The notes: generated from the letters alone by a model not told the origin. A DNA stretch of 13,787 nt from a virus (IMGVR_UViG_3300036943_000626:1-13787), one strand, 5' to 3'; shown: positions 931-13,276, counted from the stretch's first letter. Translations and numbers: made by a program.

Positions 931-1206
931 TTACATTTTTTGAACCAAATCTCCGTTGAAGACAACTGCTATTCCAAAATTTCTTTTTTCTTTTTCTTTT
1001 GTTTTTTTGTCTTTTGTTTCTCCAATTTTCCAAATTCTCACACCCTTTCCTTTTGCTCCAACCAATTTCAAGCCCAACATTCTTGCTTGAACAAAAGTGA
1101 TCCATTCGTTGCTTTTATATCCCTCATTTTCTTTGACTTCTTGAAGAACATCCTGATTTCTCCCTTGATACTCTTTTTTTGACATTTTGTTTATTTGTTG
1201 TTTCAT
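931..1206 (-). CDS. Small ArdC-N / DUF1738-like protein (putative ssDNA-binding or anti-restriction), 91 aa
   Basis: EGYKSNEWITFVQARMLGLKLVGAKGKGVRIW...IAVVFNGDLVQ resembles, from memory, the ArdC N-domain hallmark W-x-T-F-x-Q-A-x-x-L-G-x-x-V-x-K-G-x-K-G ... V-F-N-x-x-Q. It is the only minus-strand gene and has its own terminator. Confidence 0.5.
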   Translation of the reverse strand: MKQQINKMSKKEYQGRNQDVLQEVKENEGYKSNEWITFVQARMLGLKLVGAKGKGVRIWKIGETKDKKTKEKEKRNFGIAVVFNGDLVQKM

Positions 1207-1393: not shown

Positions 1394-1422
1394 TTGACTT
1401 ATTATTTGCTTTAATTTAAAAT
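1394..1422 (+). promoter_or_regulatory. Sigma70-type promoter TTGACT-17-TAAAAT
   Basis: TTGACT at 1394-1399, a 17-nt spacer, TAAAAT at 1417-1422. It lies about 175 nt upstream of the 1599 ATG. Confidence 0.6.
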
Positions 1423-1598: not shown

Positions 1599-2192
1599 AT
1601 GACTAAACCCGCAAACGAACCAAACGACAAACTTTCTCCCAAAAACTTGACTTCAACTTTCCCGAATTCTCCTCTCTGTCGTTCTTCTTGTATCACTTGC
1701 AGTTCTCCTTATTTACAAGAAATTCATAAAATGAGGTATGATGATAAAATGTATTTAAAAGATATTTCCGCGAAATTAGAAAAAGAATTTGGCGAAAAAA
1801 TCTCTTATTCTGCTTTACATAGGCATTTTACTAACTTTAATAAAAATATAAAAAGGGCTGTCGAAACTAAAATGATTAAATATCTTGAAGAAGATGTTGA
1901 CCAACGGGCGCAACATTCTGCTAAATTGACAACTTTGATTAATGCTATGTTTGACAAATTGGCTCAAAACTGGCAAGATGTTGCACCAACTATTGAAAAC
2001 TTGGAAAAATTGACAAAATTGAGATATTTGGTTATGGAAAATAAAATTTCAATGGGTGATTATGATGAACAAATTAAGTTGATTATTAAAAATGCTGAAA
2101 ATGTTGATGCAAGACAATTAAGTTTATTTTCCCCCGAAGCAATTACTCAAAAACCAGAAGAAGAAAACAGAGGGGTTGCTGACGAGCAATAA
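1599..2192 (+). CDS. Zn-ribbon + helix-turn-helix-like DNA-binding protein; positional candidate for small terminase subunit or late regulator
   Basis: CRSSCITC followed by YLKDISAKLEKEFGEKISYSALHRHFTNF (Cys cluster plus an IS..AL.RH HTH-like pattern seen in some phage TerS or regulator proteins), a coiled-coil-like middle and an acidic tail. It is the last ORF before TerL. Confidence 0.45.
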   Translation: MTKPANEPNDKLSPKNLTSTFPNSPLCRSSCITCSSPYLQEIHKMRYDDKMYLKDISAKLEKEFGEKISYSALHRHFTNFNKNIKRAVETKMIKYLEEDVDQRAQHSAKLTTLINAMFDKLAQNWQDVAPTIENLEKLTKLRYLVMENKISMGDYDEQIKLIIKNAENVDARQLSLFSPEAITQKPEEENRGVADEQ

Positions 2193-2230
2193 AACCTAAA
2201 AGGGGGTTTGGGGGAAGCCCCCATTAAGAA

Positions 2231-2292
2231 CCGCCGCTGAATTTTAAGGTTTTTTTCGAGGAGGGACGACGAGAAAAAAACCGTTAAGGCGG
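2231..2292. repeat. Stem-loop
   Basis: ggttttttt (2248-2256) pairs with aaaaaaacc (2274-2282), flanked by ttaa/ttaa and ccgcc/ggcgg. Confidence 0.7.
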
Positions 2293-2351
2293 AATGGAGG
2301 GGGTGAGCCGACCAGCGGGAGGCGAACAAGGAGCGTAGCGACCACCATTCC
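2291..2351. repeat. Stem-loop followed by the CCGACACACC tail
   Basis: ggaatggagg pairs with ccaccattcc (7+2 bp with one A.A mismatch). The loop carries GAGCGTAGCGACC. Confidence 0.6.
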
Positions 2352-2376
2352 CCGACACACCTTCGCCAAGGGGTAT

Positions 2377-2471
2377 GCGGGGAGGAAAGGAGGGGCTTGC
2401 CGGGCGAGAAAAAATAAGAAAAAGAGGAGCGAATGCGACCTTTTTCTTTTTTTCTCCTTTCCACTCCCCGC
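2377..2471. repeat. 95-nt two-tier hairpin with polypurine/polypyrimidine arms
   Basis: gcggggag..gaaag pairs with ctttcc.a.ctccccgc, and gagaaaaaataagaaaaagagg pairs with cctttttctttttttctc. The apical loop is agcgaatgcga. Confidence 0.75.
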
Positions 2472-2506
2472 AAAAAATGAGCGAATGACGAGTTTCAAAA
2501 CCCGAA

Positions 2507-2537
2507 CCTCCCCCGACCAAAGGCGGGGAGGGGGAGG
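2507..2537. repeat. Stem-loop
   Basis: cctccccc (2507-2514) pairs with gggggagg (2530-2537). Confidence 0.6.
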
Positions 2538-2546
2538 CAAAGTGAA

Positions 2547-2592
2547 GGGCGGGAGCGGAATTCAACAAAAACCTACATCTCCGCTCCCGCCC
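2547..2592. repeat. Stem-loop with a perfect 13-bp GC-rich stem
   Basis: gggcgggagcgga (2547-2559) pairs with tccgctcccgccc (2580-2592). Confidence 0.85.
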
Positions 2593-2687
2593 TGAACGGC
2601 AAGAGCGAACACCTTATTTTGAAATTTTTAAAACCAGTTACCCCCCTTGGGGGGGTTAGGGGGGGAATATGAAATAATTTTTTTATG

Positions 2688-2796
2688 TCGCACAACACAG
2701 ATTCTTGCGACATTATGGAAACAAACAAAAACCGACCCTCACAGGAAGCGGTTTTTGATTTGTTTCCAAATGTTTCGCAAAATCTATGTTGTGCGA
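2688..2796. repeat. 109-nt rod-like element: an outer helix of about 21 bp enclosing an 18-bp helix
   Basis: tcgcacaacacagattcttgcga (2688-2710) pairs with tcgcaaaatctatgttgtgcga (2775-2796) with one mismatch and one bulge. The inner pair is ggaaacaaacaaaaaccg (2717-2734) with cggtttttgatttgtttcc (2749-2767). Confidence 0.8.
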
Positions 2797-2801
2797 GTCA
2801 A

Positions 2802-2842
2802 GCCAATGAAACACAATATAAAATTTATAAAAATTCATTGGC
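2802..2842. repeat. Stem-loop
   Basis: gccaatgaa (2802-2810) pairs with ttcattggc (2834-2842); the loop is AT-rich. Confidence 0.7.
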
Positions 2843-2883
2843 GAAGACCTTGCATAAAAAAACACCTTGAGGGAGAGGGGTTT

Positions 2884-2908
2884 GGGGAGAACCGCAGTGG
2901 TTCTCCCC
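2884..2908. repeat. Stem-loop (10-bp stem, 5-nt loop)
   Basis: ggggagaacc-gcagt-ggttctcccc, followed by attttaaa. Confidence 0.8.
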
Positions 2909-2922
2909 ATTTTAAAGAGCGA

Positions 2923-2987
2923 GGGAAAAGAGGAAAAAAAACTGTTGTGTGTCTATCTTAACAACAGATTTTTTTGACTCTTTTCCC
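2923..2987. repeat. Long hairpin, paralog 1 (loop contains TATCTTA)
   Basis: gggaaaagag pairs with ctcttttccc, A-run with T-run, ctgttg with caacag. The loop is tgtgtctatcttaa. It is followed by GAGCCACCGC plus ttttatataaaaa. Confidence 0.85.
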
Positions 2988-3013
2988 GAGCCACCGCTTT
3001 TATATAAAAAAAT

Positions 3014-3080
3014 GAGCGTAGCGAACACCTTTTAAATATAAACTAATGGAGCGAAGCGACCACCTTTTATTATATAAAAA
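3014..3080 (+). repeat. Two tandem short units (35 and 32 nt), each with a GCGNAGC mini-hairpin, a GA(A/C)CACC tail and a TATA-type linker
   Basis: gagcgtagcgaacacc-ttttaaatataaactaatg (3014-3048) is followed by gagcgaagcgaccacc-ttttattatataaaaa (3049-3080). Confidence 0.75.
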
Positions 3081-3086
3081 GAGGGA

Positions 3087-3151
3087 GGGGATTTGAGAAA
3101 AAAAGACTGTTTCGCGTTTATCTTAGAAACAGCTTTTTTTCTCAATTCCCC
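3087..3151. repeat. Long hairpin, paralog 2 (loop contains TATCTTA)
   Basis: ggggatttgag pairs with ctcaattcccc, gagaaaaaaag with ctttttttctc, ctgtttc with gaaacag. The loop is gcgtttatctta. It is followed by GACCCACCGC plus ttaatataaaaa. Confidence 0.85.
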
Positions 3152-3178
3152 GACCCACCGCTTAATATAAAAAGAGGA

Positions 3179-3237
3179 GTGATATTAAAAAGCAAATGTC
3201 TTTTTTGGAAAAAAAGTCTTTTGCTTTTTAATATCAC
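3179..3237. repeat. Long hairpin with a perfect 18-bp outer stem
   Basis: gtgatattaaaaagcaaa pairs with tttgctttttaatatcac, followed by GACACACC plus tacttatataaaa. Confidence 0.85.
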
Positions 3238-3274
3238 GACACACCTACTTATATAAAAGATGAGCCAAAAATAG

Positions 3275-3318
3275 GGAAAAGGTAGTTGAGTTGGCGAAAC
3301 TACCTTTTCCTTTTTTTT
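3275..3318 (+). terminator. Strong intrinsic terminator at the 3' end of the hairpin array
   Basis: ggaaaaggtag - 14-nt loop - ctaccttttcc (perfect 11 bp) followed by T8. Confidence 0.8.
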
Positions 3319-3345
3319 GGCGAACACCTATTATTATGTTAAAAT
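3317..3345 (+). promoter_or_regulatory. Candidate extended -10 promoter for the TerL/structural operon
   Basis: TTGGCG (3317-3322), a 17-nt spacer, TGT-TAAAAT (3337-3345), about 25 nt upstream of the TerL ATG. Confidence 0.45.
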
Positions 3346-3370
3346 GCAAATATAAATTTAAAACTAAACT

Positions 3371-4774
3371 ATGATAGCATTAAAAGATAAAATTAGTTTT
3401 GCAACTAAATTCTTTGATGTTAATGAAGAATATTTAAAACTTAATAGACACTGGCAGTCTTTTGATTATTATGTTTTGGCTGGTGGTGATCCTGTTAAAT
3501 ATGAAAATATAGGTTCACACCCTGGGCAATTAGATTTTTTGATAAACTCAATACACACTGAAAACTTATTACATTCTGGTAACGGATTTGGTAAGACAGA
3601 TATTATTGCACGCAAGCACTTAGTTAAACACTTAATTCATTTTTATGATCCACTCTTAAAGAATATAGAATATAAAACTTTGAATATTGCTATTACTAGA
3701 GAGCAGGCTGAGTTAGTTCAAGATAGGATAATTCAGTTAGTTCGCATTTCTCCTTTGCTTGGTGATTGGTTTATTAAGAGATATGTTAAGTCGCCAGTTC
3801 CTGAAATAGAATTTATTAATGGTGGTAAGATAGAATTTAAAACTACTAAACGAAAGGCTGAATCTGTTGAAGGTCATCAGTATGGCTATATCTCTGCTGA
3901 TGAGATAGCACTTGAGCCACACTTAGAATTTATTAGAGAAAAGATATTGTTGCCACGATTAAGAAAGTTTGAAGATGGTCAATTAGATTGGTTTGCTACT
4001 CCGAAAGGATTTAATTCATATTATAGAATCATGCAACAGATAAAGAGATCTGGTGGCTTTGTTCGTTCTGGTTCTAGTTATGAGAATCCACACATCAATC
4101 ATAAACTTTTAGATTATATGATTAAGAATTGGAGTAAAGATAAAGTTAGACAAATTGTTTATGGTGAGTTTGTTGATAATGCTCAATTTATGTTTGCTAG
4201 TAGGATTGATAAACTTATTGATTATGATCTAGGCTTTGAGAAAGTTAAACCTGATTCTAAATATATTGAGGGTTGGGATTTGGCAAGAGGTAAGAAAGGA
4301 GAGCAAGCCGACAAGACTGTTGGTTTTAGAATAAGAAAAGGAAAGCCTAATGTTATTGTTGATTGTTTTGCTTTTCAACTTCCTTGGACTGAAGAAGAAA
4401 GATTAAATTTATTAAAAGATAATAAAGAAAAACATAATTCATCTACTGAAAGAGAAATAAGAAACAAACAAAAAGAATCTAATTCAGAATGTTATATAGA
4501 TTCAACTGGTGTTGGTGATACTTTATTTGGTATGCTTCAAGATGTTGCCCAACCTGTTGACTTTCGAGGAAAAAAAGATAAAATACTAGAGCATGCACAA
4601 GCTGTTATTGATGCCGGACTTATTAAATGTCCTTTTATTCCCGAGCTTGTGGAAGAATTAACTACTTATGAAAGAGATGATAAAAATCTACCAACTGATT
4701 ATGTTATGGCTTTTTGTATCGCTTGCTATTCTATTCCTGTATTGGATTCGTTTATTGGAACTGTTGACATATAA
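3371..4774 (+). CDS. terL: Terminase large subunit
   Basis: Walker A HSGNGFGKTD, Walker B-like YGYISADEIA, and C-terminal nuclease-type acidic motifs IEGWDLARG and YIDSTGVGD. 467 aa, directly upstream of the portal gene. Confidence 0.9.
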   Translation: MIALKDKISFATKFFDVNEEYLKLNRHWQSFDYYVLAGGDPVKYENIGSHPGQLDFLINSIHTENLLHSGNGFGKTDIIARKHLVKHLIHFYDPLLKNIEYKTLNIAITREQAELVQDRIIQLVRISPLLGDWFIKRYVKSPVPEIEFINGGKIEFKTTKRKAESVEGHQYGYISADEIALEPHLEFIREKILLPRLRKFEDGQLDWFATPKGFNSYYRIMQQIKRSGGFVRSGSSYENPHINHKLLDYMIKNWSKDKVRQIVYGEFVDNAQFMFASRIDKLIDYDLGFEKVKPDSKYIEGWDLARGKKGEQADKTVGFRIRKGKPNVIVDCFAFQLPWTEEERLNLLKDNKEKHNSSTEREIRNKQKESNSECYIDSTGVGDTLFGMLQDVAQPVDFRGKKDKILEHAQAVIDAGLIKCPFIPELVEELTTYERDDKNLPTDYVMAFCIACYSIPVLDSFIGTVDI

Positions 4775-8355: not shown

Positions 8356-8958
8356 ATGACATTTAATGAAATGGAGGCCAAAATTCAGGCTCAAATTGAC
8401 GACACAACCACAAGTATTGACGAAATGATTTATAATTCCATTCGGTATTTATATAATTATTTTGCGCTTGAAGATTGGGATGACGCTTTGGTGACTGTTG
8501 CTGATCAAAATTTTATTGAAACTGGCCTCTCTGATGTTATTGATGTTGATGTTTTGATTTATAATGGTGAACAGATTGAAAAACTTGATGAAGATGATTT
8601 TGATAAAATTCCTCAATTTGTTGATAATAATGTTAGGCGATTTTATTTTCTTCAAGGTAAAATTTATTTTACTTTCACTCCGACAGAATCTGATTTAGAG
8701 GTTAAGGTTTTGAAGAAATATCAGTTTACTTTAGCAACTACAACAAATTCTCTAGATGTTCCTCCTGAACTTCTCGAACTGGTTGAACTTGGGGCTATTT
8801 CAAGATATTATTTATATTTACTTTCATTAAATGCAAGATCAAGAGAAGACTTGCCTGATGTCAAACCTGATGAGGTTCGGCGGGCTAAAAAGAATGTTGA
8901 TGATAGTTATAATTATCTTCTTAATGAGCTTCGTAATAATTCCAATTATGCGTTATAA
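8356..8958 (+). CDS. Hypothetical structural protein (possible head-tail adaptor, by position)
   Basis: 200 aa, acidic, located between the capsid and tail genes. Confidence 0.6.
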   Translation: MTFNEMEAKIQAQIDDTTTSIDEMIYNSIRYLYNYFALEDWDDALVTVADQNFIETGLSDVIDVDVLIYNGEQIEKLDEDDFDKIPQFVDNNVRRFYFLQGKIYFTFTPTESDLEVKVLKKYQFTLATTTNSLDVPPELLELVELGAISRYYLYLLSLNARSREDLPDVKPDEVRRAKKNVDDSYNYLLNELRNNSNYAL

Positions 8959-10468
8959 AGAAATTGTTTTTAAAAATGTTGAAGATGGAATTTCTGATAA
9001 TCAACTTCAATTAGAAACTAGTAAAAATAATATTATCAAAGGACTTATTGATTCTGATTCTATAATTCCTTCTCCTAATACTTCTTCTCCTATTTTGAAT
9101 CGTCTTTTTGAAGTTAAAAAAACTATTTCTGGTGTTTCTTATTCTATTGATGAGGTTCTTTATAATGCTAGTGCTTTTTTTATTAAAGAAGGAACTTTAT
9201 TTAAAGCTACTTTAAATAATACTGATAATCATGTTCATCTTTATAAACTTTTAAATGATTCTGATGATGATACTTTTGATTATGTTGGAGATGCTGGTGA
9301 AGCTGATTTGATTACTGGTGCTTTTTCTATTCAAAATAAAATTGTTGTTTTTGGAGATTTTGCTTCTGGTCATTTATGTAAGGTTTCTGAGGATAATGGT
9401 TTAACTTGGTCTGGTTTTGACCCTCAATATTCTGGCTCTGATATTCTTATTCATCCTGCTAAACCTGTTTATAAAAATGGAAAATATTATTTTCATGAAT
9501 CCTTTCCTGGTTTTAGCACAAATCCAGCCTATCGTCGTATTTATACTACTACTGATTTTACAACTTTTACTAAAATTCATGATTCAGATCCCGGTCCTTG
9601 GGAAATAACATATATGTTTCAGTTTTTGGATGATATTTATATTGTTGAAGACAAAACGACTGGTATAGGTTCTAATGTTCGTAATTCAACAACTAAATTA
9701 TCTCGTTATGATGAAATTAATGATACTTTTGAGCTCATTAAGTTTGTTAATAATGTTCAATTTAGTGTTACTAATTTTTTTGTTTTTCAAGATAAGATTT
9801 GCTCTATTTTTTCTGATGGTCGTAATCGTCGTTTATGGATGTTTGATGGTATGAATTCTACTTATAAATCAATGGAAAAAAATCAAGATCTTAAAGATAA
9901 AGCTAATAGAATATACGGCGTTAGTGATGATTATTTATATTGGAGTGATGGTAGTGATGATATTCATGTTATTGATAAAAATTTTTCATATTTTAGAAAT
10001 TTTTTAAAAATTTCTGATTTTTTAAATACTAATGAAGATCGTCAAGATTTTATTGTTTATCAAGATAATATTTTCGTTTCAACTTATAACAGTGATACTG
10101 ATGATGAGAGAATTTTTCACTTTTCTTCTGATAAAATAATTGCTTCTGGTTCTTTTGTTTTTCCTACAATTAAAAATAATCAAATTATTCCCAAGCAAAT
10201 TATCTTATATCATAAAGAATTAGGAACTGGTTCTAAAATAGAAATTTATTATTCAACCGAAGATCATCCTATAGATGGATTTACTTATACAAAATTAGGT
10301 GAGGAAACTGTTGCTGGTGCTACTCGTTATGTTTTGGATTTTCCTTCTGGTCTGGTCTTTAATAGAATTACTTTTAAGGTTATAATTTATGATGATACAA
10401 ATAATTTGATTGGAGTTGATGATTTAACTTTAAAATTTTTGTATACAGTTAAAAATTTAGATAAATAA
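8948..10468 (+). CDS. Tail or receptor-binding protein with an Asp-box (BNR) motif; probable beta-propeller
   Basis: I prefer the ATG at 8948 (MRYKEIVFKNVEDG), which gives an 11-nt overlap, over the track start at 8831, which gives a 128-nt overlap. SEDNGLTW at 9385-9408 matches S-x-D-x-G-x-T-W. Confidence 0.65.
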   Translation: MRYKEIVFKNVEDGISDNQLQLETSKNNIIKGLIDSDSIIPSPNTSSPILNRLFEVKKTISGVSYSIDEVLYNASAFFIKEGTLFKATLNNTDNHVHLYKLLNDSDDDTFDYVGDAGEADLITGAFSIQNKIVVFGDFASGHLCKVSEDNGLTWSGFDPQYSGSDILIHPAKPVYKNGKYYFHESFPGFSTNPAYRRIYTTTDFTTFTKIHDSDPGPWEITYMFQFLDDIYIVEDKTTGIGSNVRNSTTKLSRYDEINDTFELIKFVNNVQFSVTNFFVFQDKICSIFSDGRNRRLWMFDGMNSTYKSMEKNQDLKDKANRIYGVSDDYLYWSDGSDDIHVIDKNFSYFRNFLKISDFLNTNEDRQDFIVYQDNIFVSTYNSDTDDERIFHFSSDKIIASGSFVFPTIKNNQIIPKQIILYHKELGTGSKIEIYYSTEDHPIDGFTYTKLGEETVAGATRYVLDFPSGLVFNRITFKVIIYDDTNNLIGVDDLTLKFLYTVKNLDK

Positions 10469-12603: not shown

Positions 12604-12786
12604 ATGAATAACGATGTAGGCGATCACCCTTTAGGCTTACCAAAAGGCAGTATTCGAGCAATACTGGTTTTAATTTTGACAGTTTTTTTTGCTATCTGTA
12701 TTTATGTTGAAAAAGAAATTCCCAAAGATGTCGGAATTGTTTGGATTTCAATGTTGAGTTATTATCTTGGTCATAGATCTCCTTGA
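12604..12786 (+). CDS. Holin-like small membrane protein (60 aa, two hydrophobic segments)
   Basis: IRAILVLILTVFFAICIYV and VGIVWISMLSYYLG, located next to the endolysin module. Confidence 0.55.
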   Translation: MNNDVGDHPLGLPKGSIRAILVLILTVFFAICIYVEKEIPKDVGIVWISMLSYYLGHRSP

Positions 12787-12811
12787 CAAATTTTTTCTTT
12801 TTCTATATAAT
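12783..12811 (+). promoter_or_regulatory. Perfect-consensus sigma70 promoter TTGACA-17-TATAAT
   Basis: TTGACA at 12783-12788 overlaps the holin TGA, followed by a 17-nt spacer and TATAAT at 12806-12811. Confidence 0.7.
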
Positions 12812-12873
12812 CAAATTGCAATAAGAAATTTTTTAAGTTTTGTTTTTTTCTTTTTGCTTTTTCTATCTTTTTG

Positions 12874-12915
12874 AAATTAAAATCCCGTTTCCTTCATTTT
12901 CGGGATTTTAATTTT
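12874..12915 (+). terminator. Intrinsic terminator (perfect 14-bp stem)
   Basis: aaattaaaatcccg - 13-nt loop - cgggattttaattt; the 3' arm is T-rich. Confidence 0.7.
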
Positions 12916-12918
12916 CTC

Positions 12919-12957
12919 TTGACAAAAATTCCCATTTTAGTAAACTTATAATATAAT
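12919..12957 (+). promoter_or_regulatory. Second early promoter region
   Basis: TTGACA (12919-12924), a 16-nt spacer, TAAACT (12941-12946), followed by two overlapping TATAAT hexamers (12947-12957). It shares cttgacaaa and tataatcaa with the 12783 promoter. Confidence 0.5.
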
Positions 12958-13100
12958 CAATGACCACACTTTTTTGCAAGCGATTGTCGATCACTTTCAA
13001 ACAAGTGGTAAAATTATGTTTATTATTTTTTTAAAACATCTTCTTATTCTAAAGCCTAGTTTTTAGGTGGTTTTTTTGATTTTAATAAATAATTTTAAAA

Positions 13101-13274
13101 ATGAAAAAAAACAGGTATGCTCTTTTATGGACTTCTTTTGGTTATGTTTTGACCAATGGAAAATCTCGTTGCGGTTACTTCAAAAATAAGTTTGAAGTTC
13201 AAAAATTTCTTTTGCTTTTAAAAAAGGAATTAGGCGATGAGAAAATGAATGTTTTTAGTTTAATAAATAAATAA
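13101..13274 (+). CDS. Hypothetical small early protein (57 aa, below the ORF-track cutoff)
   Basis: MKKNRYALLWTSFGYVLTNGKSRCGYFKNKFEVQKFLLLLKKELGDEKMNVFSLINK, read by hand. The stop lies 2 nt before the next ATG. Confidence 0.5.
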   Translation: MKKNRYALLWTSFGYVLTNGKSRCGYFKNKFEVQKFLLLLKKELGDEKMNVFSLINK

Positions 13275-13276
13275 TT

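Follow-up and report, generated by a model that had tools for sequence, protein, structure and literature searches.

A conserved, strand-specific stem-loop array between the terminase genes of a family of small tailed phages

Results

The DNA analysed here is a viral stretch of 13,787 nt (IMGVR_UViG_3300036943_000626:1-13787; the window, or W, in what follows), which ends in a 127-bp exact direct overlap and hence represents a circular assembly; the source genome is a circular podophage of 13,660 bp. Our subject is the region 2193-3370, an array of stem-loops between a gene resembling that of a terminase small subunit (terS-like; 1599..2192, +, 197 aa) and the gene of a T4-type large terminase (terL; 3371..4774, +; Pfam Terminase_6N above cut-off). 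A preliminary description, made from the sequence alone, had singled out the region as taking up 8.6% of the genome (1178/13660) with no credible coding capacity, and both statements hold: the longest stop-to-stop frame has 115 codons, and tblastx against the same region of relatives gave no match and no conserved peptide. Reading TAA as sense lengthens the longest frame to 253 codons; reading TGA or TAG as sense opens no long frame in the region. With neither a long frame nor a conserved peptide, protein coding of 2193-3370 was rejected. The G+C values counted by hand in the preliminary description were exact (40/60 at 2281-2340, 14/60 at 9001-9060). The region has 42% G+C (52.5% in 2193-2640) compared to 30% in the rest of the genome, and family-wide the 5' halves of the corresponding gaps have a mean of 46% compared to 39% in terL. 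Raised G+C in an A+T-rich genome is typical of structured RNA genes. Misassembly is excluded by four independent assemblies from other samples (L254, L255, L256 and L257), where the region directly follows a terS gene that encodes a protein 50-85% identical to that of the window. Here and below, L-numbers are labels of relatives' loci and the gap is the interval from the terS-like stop to the terL start.

The region is strongly folded. In 150-nt windows the mean folding z-score is -4.5 on the plus strand and -4.9 on the minus strand, compared to -0.46 and -0.34 outside the region. The minimum free energy (MFE) of the whole region is -459.8 kcal/mol, compared to -232 to -317 kcal/mol in four coding stretches of equal length, and the plus-strand MFE lies 19 kcal/mol below that of the minus strand. 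When elements are folded singly, 10 of 14 have z <= -3; those weak or non-significant alone are 2201-2226 (-2.1), 2231-2292 (-2.1), 2291-2361 (-1.2) and 2640-2670 (-0.9). The earlier statement that almost every base lies in a hairpin was too strong: 76% of the bases fall inside 16 discrete elements, and 65% are paired in the MFE structure, a fraction about the same as in the coding controls.

All elements of the array are given here in their plus-strand reading. It opens, 9 nt past the terS stop, with a G-run element of type a (2201..2226; GGGGG-TTT-GGGGG-AAG-CCCCC-ATTA), followed by a CCGCC...GGCGG hairpin with an inner A7/T7 stem (2231..2292), which appears in both MFE and centroid folds and is alignable in L254, L255 and L256. 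The loosely structured segment that comes next (2291..2361) carries the motif GGAGCGTAGCGACCACC (2330-2346) and the tail CCCCGACACACC; this 17-mer motif is kept as GGAGCGAAGCGACCACC at the matching place in L257 and as GGAGCGGAGCGACCA in L254 and L255. A 95-nt hairpin whose 5' arm is rich in purines and whose 3' arm is rich in pyrimidines, with the motif GGA-GC(GAAT)GC-GAC at its apex (2377..2471; z -4.0, 0/200 shuffles as good) is identical in L255, while L254 carries a different hairpin instead. At the position of the G+C-rich hairpin 2507..2537 (z -3.3), L254 has unrelated sequence that is also hairpin-forming. The perfect 14-bp hairpin with a 20-nt loop at 2546..2593 (z -7.3) shows compensatory changes, namely two G-C to A-T and one A-T to G-C relative to L255, and one G-C to A-T relative to L254. 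The minimal motif GAGCGAACACC found by motif scan at 2603..2613 is kept in L254, L255 and L256. Then follow a G-run element of type b (2640..2670; CCCCCC-TT-GGGGGGG-TTA-GGGGGGG), the 109-nt hairpin which we call the H element (2688..2796; TCGCACAA...ATT.TTGCGAC // GTTTCGCAAAAT...TTGTGCGA; z -12.4), an A+T-rich hairpin succeeded by GAAGACC (2802..2842; z -3.4) and a further G-run element of type a, built as a hairpin GGGGAGAACC-GCAGT-GGTTCTCCCC then ATTTT (2869..2912; z -3.1), an arrangement shared with the tandem units of L063 and with L257 1243-1275.

The 3' part of the array consists of six units, U1 to U6. U1 (2917..2995; z -7.4) reads GAGCGA, a hairpin with the 12-nt loop GTGTCTATCTTA, then GAGCCACC, and U4 (3081..3160; z -7.8) reads GAGGGA, a hairpin with the 12-nt loop GCGTTTATCTTA, then GACCCACC; the loop of U4 is identical in L027, L089, L090 and L257. 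Between them lie two mini-units, U2 (3013..3031; TGA-GCGTAGC-GAACACC), a GNA-triloop mini-hairpin clamped by G·A/A·G and placed within a 35-nt tandem repeat, and U3 (3047..3066; GGA-GCGAAGC-GACCACC), of which the 17-mer 3050-3066 is identical in L257. U5 (3174..3245; z -7.7) has a near-perfect 28-bp hairpin between GAGGA and GACACACC and corresponds to the inverted repeat I2, with arms 93% complementary. U6 (3259..3330; z -6.9) has a hairpin between GATGA and GAACACC, the inner part of which (3273-3318) is a canonical terminator. As the preliminary description had it, GAGCG[AT]A occurs six times; CGA[AC]CACC tails occur five times, and both motifs are found on the plus strand only and, within the genome, in this region only.

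At the DNA level, neither the whole window nor the region had a match among 50,697 phage records, and TerL as a single query gave no match in viral contigs; a TerL alignment as query was needed to reach relatives, yielding 59 loci from metagenome and viral collections, to which protein look-ups added closer relatives. In every locus holding both genes (~35 non-redundant), a gap of 0.4-1.6 kb separates the terS-like gene from terL downstream, and this order persists where the portal and other structural genes are inverted relative to terL. The terminase module of terS, gap and terL behaves as a separate block, and the gap is a family character tied to both terminase genes, since all loci with both genes, those of the inverted subfamily included, keep it. 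Primary sequence of the gap diverges fast; element types recur, all of them on the gene-sense strand, and hairpins number 151 in 33.9 kb of gaps compared to 20 in 37.6 kb of terL coding sequence. The early suggestion that so small a phage would not carry this much DNA without a function is strongly supported by position, strand and element content of the gap being kept in ~35 non-redundant relatives, together with compensatory changes. Element order is conserved as well. L257 has the order of the window although its terS product is only 50% identical: G-run, hairpins, the GGAGCGAAGCGACCACC 17-mer, long hairpin, H, hairpin, G-run, 12-nt-loop unit, GAGCG mini-units and terL promoter. An order shared in this way, with an exact 17-mer, is as in a multi-domain RNA.

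Covariation was found in two element types. The H consensus TCGCAYAA...ATT..GCGA // TCGC..AAT...TTRTGCGA is present in 24 distinct relatives, always within the gap. For 22 distinct sequences in a two-arm alignment, with 500 shuffles and slid controls, the basal 16 pairs are 89.8% paired compared to 73% in shuffles and 28-49% in the slid controls; 58 cells have changed on both sides compared to 17 in shuffles, and none of the 500 shuffles reaches 58. At one position of H a mismatch, C·A or C·C, is retained throughout. Run loosely over genome contigs, the H pattern gave 120 chance matches and no family member. The second type comprises the ~80-nt hairpins with the conserved 12-nt loop GNGTYTATCTTA, of which the window has two (U1, U4), L257 has one and the L027/L088/L089/L090 lineage has three or four. 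Among five copies, compensatory changes are seen at 18 of 27 pairs. The covariance model R1 scores these units at 87-91 bits on the plus and ~30 bits on the minus strand (U1, 86.9 and 30; U4, 90.4 and 29.4), all strong matches lie in gaps, and U5 is matched at E 3e-5. Pairing of the loop with a genomic target is not indicated by the complement TAAGATARA, which is not enriched.

Among L254, L255 and L256, the terS products of which are 82-85% identical to that of the window, some hairpins are swapped for unrelated sequences that still form hairpins. This hairpin-for-hairpin replacement and the compensatory changes at 2546-2593 show that structure is under selection among the close relatives. 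Covariation of inverted repeats could in principle come from homogenisation of the arms; the wobble asymmetry described next argues against it. The copy number of units varies, L027 having three tandem copies of CGA(A/G)CGGAGCGAGCACTTATTTAATATAAAAGA at 31-140 and L089 one at 185-225, and long tandem repeats occur in the 3' part of the gap in L064 (1940-2130) and L067 (4700-4900), both with A+T-rich ~31-nt units (AATGTTGAAACTTGAATGTTT...), and in L063 (4500-4960), with ~240-nt units each holding G-run elements.

The strand in which the structures are selected can be told from their mismatches. Hairpins were collected with an equal penalty for every kind of mismatch, and the stems contain 53-56 G·T compared to 14-15 A·C; isolated T·T mismatches number 24 and A·A only 1, where composition predicts ~17 and ~15. 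The H alignment alone repeats the pattern. A duplex site or a cruciform would distinguish neither G·T from A·C nor T·T from A·A; selection therefore acts on structures of the plus strand only. RNA helices tolerate U·U and G·U and avoid A·A and A·C, whereas nearest-neighbour data for DNA rate T·T about equal to A·A. The mismatch spectrum is thus suggested as moderate evidence for RNA. Among the functions first considered for the array, the DNA-level one with iterons and cruciforms is weakened by the strand-asymmetric mismatches, although DnaA boxes around the module in relatives keep a replication reading alive.

Small building blocks of the array are likewise strand-specific. In the family gaps GCGNAGC occurs 101 times on the plus and 5 times on the minus strand, at 2.8/kb compared to 0.10/kb elsewhere (28-fold), a count to which tandem NAGCG pentamers contribute in part by creating the heptamer automatically; N is A in 39%, G in 36%, T in 21% and C in 1%. 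The window has three copies (2333, 3016, 3051), each with the heptamer of the d(GCGNAGC) mini-hairpin, in which two G-C pairs and a sheared G·A close a turn of one base. The heptamers either cap G+C stems or sit between flanking GA...GA, and in L029 and L028 an outer Watson-Crick stem extends past GA/GA, placing the G·A pairs inside a continuous helix. For stems >= 8 bp, 5' GA / 3' GA is the top outer flank (19 of 491 on the plus strand compared to 2 on the minus-strand reading), with a Watson-Crick pair next in 15 of the 19.

In the G-run element a G4-7-TTW-G4-7 core is accompanied by a C-run, which lies downstream of it in type a and upstream in type b. Cores of the form G4+-W2-3-G4+ are counted 43 times on the plus strand of gaps and once on the minus strand, ~100-fold denser than in the rest of the loci. 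An element stands directly past the terS stop in at least nine genomes, as type a in L255, L254, L257, L091 and L071 and as type b in L060, L063 and L045. At the orthologous place 2640-2670 type b is shared by the window and L254, while L255 shows type a (GGGGTTTGGGGGGAACCCCCATTA); both sides of the core are thus open to the C-run. It could pair with the adjacent G-run, the other G-run being folded back via TTT, to give a triplex- or quadruplex-like fold. A G-run with its C-run on either side at one orthologous place is a rare case at the level of sequence and points to an element of triplex or quadruplex type under selection.

Signals for transcription were located by consensus scan. A sigma70-like promoter (TTGACT-17-TAAAAT; 1394..1422, +; 10/12 matches) lies upstream of the terS-like gene, and no canonical terminator follows the terS stop in the window genome. 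The terminator inside U6 (3273-3318; 15-bp stem, five G-C pairs, tail TTTTTTGG) has the features of an intrinsic terminator, in the same form as those at 859-886, 898-927 and 12879-12910, and it is the sole canonical hairpin with a T-tract in the gap, just as had been noticed before. Its T-run overlaps the terL promoter-like site TTGGCG-17-TGtTAAAAT with extended -10 (3317..3345, +). Many relatives have an extended -10 (TGnTATAAT) whose last base is only 6-7 nt from the terL ATG (L029 4915-4940, L091 3980-4003, L028, L036, L072, L074); terL mRNA would therefore be leaderless and made from its own promoter. The idea of one sigma70 promoter per unit was rejected, as the TATAAA -10-like boxes in the spacers have no -35 and real promoters are near-consensus. 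The simplest picture for the window genome would be one transcript comprising terS and the 1.18-kb array. Elsewhere in the genome, a perfect consensus sigma70 promoter (TTGACA-17-TATAAT) and a second TTGACA-type site are found at 12783-12811 and 12929-12958 in non-coding 12787-13276; they are probably early promoters.

Perfect DnaA boxes (TTATCCACA) occur 35 times in 334 kb of family loci, where 2.5 are expected (14-fold). Twelve lie <= 450 nt upstream of terS, eight <= 200 nt after terL and six in the 3' end of the gap; the gap boxes come from the inverted-order subfamily, where L053, L054, L078 and L060 have them in tandem. Individual perfect boxes are found, for example, at L028 3317 and 4899, L053 3224-3254, L060 3153 and 4893, L064 46-334 and L050 6370. 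In the window, an imperfect DnaA-box-like sequence, TTATCAACA, was read beside the terS promoter (1423-1431, -).

The array belongs to no Rfam family. Rfam 15, which includes GOLLD, ROOL, phi29 packaging RNA (pRNA), riboswitches, ribozymes, 6S and tmRNA, gave no match in the window at gathering threshold; the best matches in the region are noise of miRNA-type hairpins at 21-36 bits, compared to thresholds of 64-230. Loci of 18 relatives (148 kb) gave 0 matches at gathering score, and ARAGORN found 0 tRNA or tmRNA genes in the window, so that the earlier remark that no known family is recognisable is supported. Literature on non-coding RNAs (ncRNAs) of Patescibacteria phages and on structured terS-terL intergenic regions yielded nothing relevant. 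Several identities were tried and set aside. The kink-turn or box C/D motif shares the tandem G·A, yet by eye (U1-U6 and the L086 units) the unpaired 3' ACC or CACC stands 2 nt beyond the G·A, on the wrong side. The hammerhead ribozyme is matched in the GA[stem]GA part only; C3, U4 and A15.1 are absent and Rfam gave no hammerhead match. A CRISPR array was rejected since the units differ in length and sequence and the sole regular repeat, with a period of 35 nt, runs to 2.4 copies with 78% matches. Group II domain 5, tRNA-like CCA ends, anti-Shine-Dalgarno mimicry and lambda boxA, inspected by eye, each miss a defining feature.

Array motifs were also sought outside the family. The 17-mer GGAGCGWAGCGAMCACC has 26 matches in viral contigs, about chance level and none from relatives. 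An exact copy of GGAGCGAAGCGACCACC lies in L010 (5622-5638, -), intergenic in an unrelated 87-kb viral contig of 28% G+C, followed by ATATAAAC as in the window, and the same 17-mer occurs twice, 68 nt apart, in L001 (12345-12429, -), a contig of 57% G+C, total matches being at chance level. Arrays of (GAGCGRAGC)n gave 41 matches in viral contigs where ~12 are expected; they are heterogeneous and offer no functional lead. Examples in unrelated viral contigs are L212 (1300-1460, -), L241, L247, L237 and L250; the L212 array is intergenic and adjoins a TATATATA tract in a 98-kb virus of 36% G+C, and that of L231 is coding low-complexity sequence.

Beyond the terminase genes, profile matches identify an SU10-type major capsid protein and adaptor, an SPP1-type portal and an M23/LysM lysin; the gene of a single-stranded DNA-binding protein (SSB) straddles the circle junction. 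A 91-aa protein matching the N-terminal single-stranded DNA (ssDNA)-binding domain of anti-restriction ArdC (ArdC-N; Pfam E 1.9e-9) is encoded at 931-1206 (-), the only clear minus-strand gene of the window. Among the window's open reading frames (ORFs), profile matches of Pfam/PHROG type recognised no polymerase, primase, helicase or initiator. The terS assignment is weak, resting on sub-threshold profile matches and synteny: the protein has a helix-turn-helix followed by long helices and only weak matches, to Pfam Phage_Mu_Gp27 (E 7.6e-5, under the family cut-off) and to PHROG 426 'terminase small subunit' (E 1.7e-4). Its AlphaFold model is poor (predicted local distance difference test score, pLDDT, 57) and gave no Foldseek match to the PDB at E < 1; PDB sequence profiles returned coiled-coil noise only. 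It has only eight homologues. TerL has 233 homologues at E <= 1e-5, many of them on 13-15-kb contigs. The few that are named come from metagenome bins of Moranbacteria, Peribacteraceae and one Promethearchaeia, and because of these bin labels the hosts are probably Patescibacteria (candidate phyla radiation), which we offer as a lead only.

No Shine-Dalgarno sequence was found in the 30 nt upstream of 16/16 ORF starts examined, the leaders being all A+T-rich; the non-coding array is rich in GGAG and GAGG strings although the window genes lack Shine-Dalgarno sequences. A 76-aa protein with four cysteines (CPF...C..C...CPF; 610-840, +) is encoded near terS in most relatives and has no Pfam or PHROG match; its size and cysteine pattern resemble, as we take it, small zinc-finger late activators such as P2 Ogr. 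In the inverted subfamily (L028, L053, L054, L060/L249, L071, L073, L078) this ORF converges on terL. The 545-aa ORF 8831-10468, which has no family match, overlaps the adaptor gene (8356-8958) by 128 nt as listed, and because of this overlap its true start is probably further downstream.

Discussion

Based on the evidence collected here, the region is an ordered, non-coding element, ancient within its phage family and selected as single-stranded structure of the plus strand. We understand it as a conserved cis-acting module of ~16 stem-loops on the gene-sense strand and, as the likeliest though still tentative reading of the sequence data, as one long structured ncRNA serving as a multivalent protein scaffold; that it acts as RNA rather than as a DNA strand, where its transcript begins and ends and that it binds protein are the parts which we infer. 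Transcription would start at the terS promoter (1394-1422), pass the terS stop, at which no canonical terminator is seen, cross the array and end at the 3273-3318 terminator immediately before terL's own promoter. The RNA would then display its domains in order, with G-run elements, the H hairpin, hairpins with GNGUYUAUCUUA loops and GNA-loop mini-hairpins that have tandem G·A clamps and then a GA(A/C)CACC tail as repeated, sequence-specific docking sites, so that it could work as a multivalent scaffold or sponge for protein. The packaging machinery (TerS or terminase) would be the preferred partner, because the module keeps its place beside terS and terL through rearrangements; a host RNA-binding factor is the alternative.

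Several observations weigh against a scaffold RNA of this kind. An RNA-binding protein was not identified in the genome. Ahead of the individual units there is no canonical promoter, and strong terminators stand early in the gap of L028 (51-74), L091 (59-80) and L062 (77-98) and in mid-gap in others, so that a single terS-driven transcript cannot be general; the earlier proposal that the array is transcribed as a unit with the preceding gene is plausible for the window genome and does not extend to such relatives. Unit copy number differs between strains with identical or near-identical TerL, which is not expected of a machine part of fixed stoichiometry. The top small loops are the triloops C(GAA)G and C(GGA)G, with GNA counted 46 times compared to 15 for its reverse complement, and neither GNRA (16 compared to 8) nor UNCG (3 compared to 3) is notably enriched. 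GCGNAGC is a DNA-type mini-hairpin, the RNA form being much less stable. Mismatches lean to RNA and loop types to DNA, and sequence by itself cannot separate the two forms of the plus strand. Of the three kinds of function that the preliminary description had put forward, small structured RNAs, a large ornate ncRNA or a DNA-level pac site or origin, the first two, taken as single-stranded plus-strand structures, are thus favoured over the duplex-DNA part of the third, without RNA and ssDNA being separated.

The most serious rival, possible but on balance unlikely, takes the hairpins as plus-strand ssDNA, exposed on the lagging-strand template of a rightward fork, on a strand displaced in rolling-circle replication or in an R-loop, where they would serve as priming or primosome-assembly signals for host enzymes. 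Such a module would resemble the G4 complementary-strand origin, plasmid ssi/sso sites or the Ff hairpin array, and would use host DnaA, DnaB, DnaG and polymerases. GCGNAGC, with its strong plus-strand bias and density in gaps, is a classic among DNA mini-hairpins for its extraordinary stability, which the RNA form is far from reaching; the heptamer is known from the G4 origin and the N4 hairpin promoters (GCGGAGC), a related CCGAAGG occurs in RSF1010 ssiA, and the known cases mark single-strand initiation sites (PMC13037366). In the same direction point the tandem sheared-type G·A closings, predominantly on the plus strand, the G5-TTT-G5 core with its C-run, which would fit an intramolecular purine-motif triplex or a G-quadruplex, and a gene complement in which SSB and the ArdC-N-like ssDNA-binding protein are encoded and no replication enzyme or initiator was recognised. 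Since perfect DnaA boxes bracket it in relatives, terS-gap-terL lies in a DnaA-marked zone there. Yet the window genome has no perfect box, only TTATCAACA, and boxes with <=1 mismatch are not enriched in gaps; the energetics of DNA hairpins can hardly account for the excess of T·T over A·A; gaps do not exceed terL coding sequence in GC skew and so show no special R-loop signature; and an origin of DnaA type needs no 16-hairpin array, high G+C being unusual for origins besides. A duplex pac or cos site, at which TerS would bind the GAGCG/NAGCG pentamers and A+T-rich spacers and the hairpins would be secondary, appears doubtful. Lying beside terS, such a site would be passed on jointly with its protein. 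It would account for the module staying between terS and terL through gene-order inversions, for dense direct NAGCG repeats near the terL end in many relatives (L060, L036, L043, L071), for the 35-nt tandem repeat of the window and for copy number varying between strains. Direct NAGCG and GAGCG repeats are present and adjoin the weakly assigned terS, but the strand asymmetry of mismatches is not expected of duplex sites, which predict neither compensatory stems nor 60-100-nt hairpins inserted mid-motif; 1.2 kb is far above the size of known sites such as lambda cosB, SPP1 pac and P22 pac, and the assignment of terS is itself weak. The contigs of many relatives end inside the gap, which could reflect physical genome ends or, equally, assembly breaks at repeats; they comprise L027, L086-L090, L041, L052, L066, L069, L076 and the terS contigs L253-L256, and include near-genome-length contigs of 13-15 kb as well as short terS contigs that stop a few hundred bases past the gene.

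Two further explanations carry less weight. That the array is a transcriptional boundary, a stack of terminator-like hairpins insulating the late terL operon with activator sites for the terL promoter alongside, is improbable, even though the terL promoter lies at the 3' edge of the gap with a canonical terminator directly ahead of it in the window, many units have an inner hairpin and then a T-run, paired to an upstream A-run, and the conserved four-cysteine protein (610-840) is encoded nearby. A single terminator is enough elsewhere in the window genome, terminator positions are inconsistent among relatives, and the H element ~600 nt upstream, the 12-nt loops and the G-run elements are left unexplained. 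We give hardly any credence to selfish palindromes resembling repetitive extragenic palindromes (REP), miniature inverted-repeat transposable elements (MITE) or palindrome-associated transposable elements (PATE) in a tolerant site. The mini-units GAGCG-NAG-CGACCACC would be 'empty' and the hairpin units 'filled', and hairpins do sit exactly between both halves of the mini-unit motif, close relatives swap them for unrelated ones and copy number varies; but there is no transposase, other intergenic regions lack the hairpins, which are confined to one gap, and order, loops and the H element are kept across deep divergence with covariation. The pac, boundary and selfish explanations each account for some features and leave covariation, strand asymmetry and conserved order unaccounted for.

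Within the structured single strand, there is an outside chance that the module constitutes a third, nucleic-acid component of the terminase module in a large, hitherto undescribed family of ~14-kb phages with Patescibacteria as probable hosts, either a long RNA or the plus DNA strand, with ordered hairpin domains that would dock onto the TerS/TerL/portal machinery. It would in effect be a covalently concatenated, pRNA-like packaging cofactor or a structured pac signal read single-stranded. The readings are not mutually exclusive: in the intergenic region of Ff phages one hairpin array holds packaging and replication signals together.

Our findings have importance for what a very small phage maintains. 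A family with 233 TerL homologues devotes 3-11% of its genome to a structured non-coding module beside the terminase genes; tailed phages of ~14 kb have almost no spare room, yet the module is kept, as a family trait and not a quirk. We know of no earlier description that combines GA-clamped GNA mini-hairpins with a G5-TTT-G5 core carrying a C-run on either side. If the module is RNA, it would be a new class of large phage ncRNA with unusual building blocks, and phi29 pRNA would be the sole earlier hint of an RNA linked to a packaging module. Should it act as plus-strand DNA, a tailed phage without replication enzymes would borrow the host replisome via hairpin signals of Ff or G4 style. Either way it offers clean conserved motifs for experiment in phages of poorly understood likely hosts, the Patescibacteria.

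Comparison with known systems places the array near several of them. The analogy to phi29 pRNA drawn in the preliminary description is apt in that a small podophage is concerned and, if the array is RNA, a structured RNA would be tied to packaging genes, with repeated units that could give multivalency; membership fails at each point compared. A single RNA of ~120-174 nt forms rings via loop-loop pairing in phi29, which has no TerS, packages with an ATPase of its own type and replicates by protein priming with a B-family polymerase, whereas the array phage carries a terS-like gene beside a T4-type Terminase_6N terL, its ORFs yielded no polymerase, unit number varies between strains and Rfam gives no pRNA match; the hairpins are simple, with no three-way-junction unit, complementary loop pairs not having been searched systematically. 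GOLLD and ROOL, also invoked earlier as precedents, are excluded by Rfam. With them and with the sponges CsrB/RsmZ the array shares a length of ~0.5-1.2 kb, many hairpins, the phage link and short motifs on hairpins, and as in sponges the unit number is variable; unlike GOLLD and ROOL, it is a string of local hairpins and not a multi-branched ornate fold. A sponge of the CsrB/RsmZ type was rejected as the GGA loop for CsrA is not conserved: GGA triloops make up 36% family-wide and the window copies are GTA and GAA. ColE1 RNA II and mitochondrial conserved sequence block II (CSBII) are likewise ORF-free and transcribed in one direction, with multiple stem-loops and non-template G-runs, to which the GGGGGTTTGGGGG of the array past the terS stop may be compared, and the replicon has no initiator gene; unlike in these, GC skew of the array is not above that of neighbouring coding sequence and no unit like antisense RNA I was identified.

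The d(GCGNAGC) signals of G4 and N4 are matched in the exact heptamer (N = A, G, T), which is strand-specific in gaps and caps G+C stems or is G·A-extended; the known sites are one or few hairpins and not arrays within 1 kb, and the array phage encodes no N4-type RNA polymerase or plasmid-type primase. Hairpins A-E of the Ff phages (M13/f1/fd) likewise form an ORF-free intergenic block of several hundred bases, an ordered array in which hairpins work on one strand only; signals for packaging and for replication are combined there within a very small genome. Unlike the tailed double-stranded DNA podophage with terminase, portal and SU10-type capsid considered here, the Ff phages have ssDNA genomes and encode a nickase, gpII; there is no sequence similarity, and the present array is 2-3 times longer and built from other motifs. 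In concept the array is closest to the Ff intergenic region and to the large phage ncRNAs, and it has a real chance of being something more unusual than the structured cis-acting or RNA modules known from phages.

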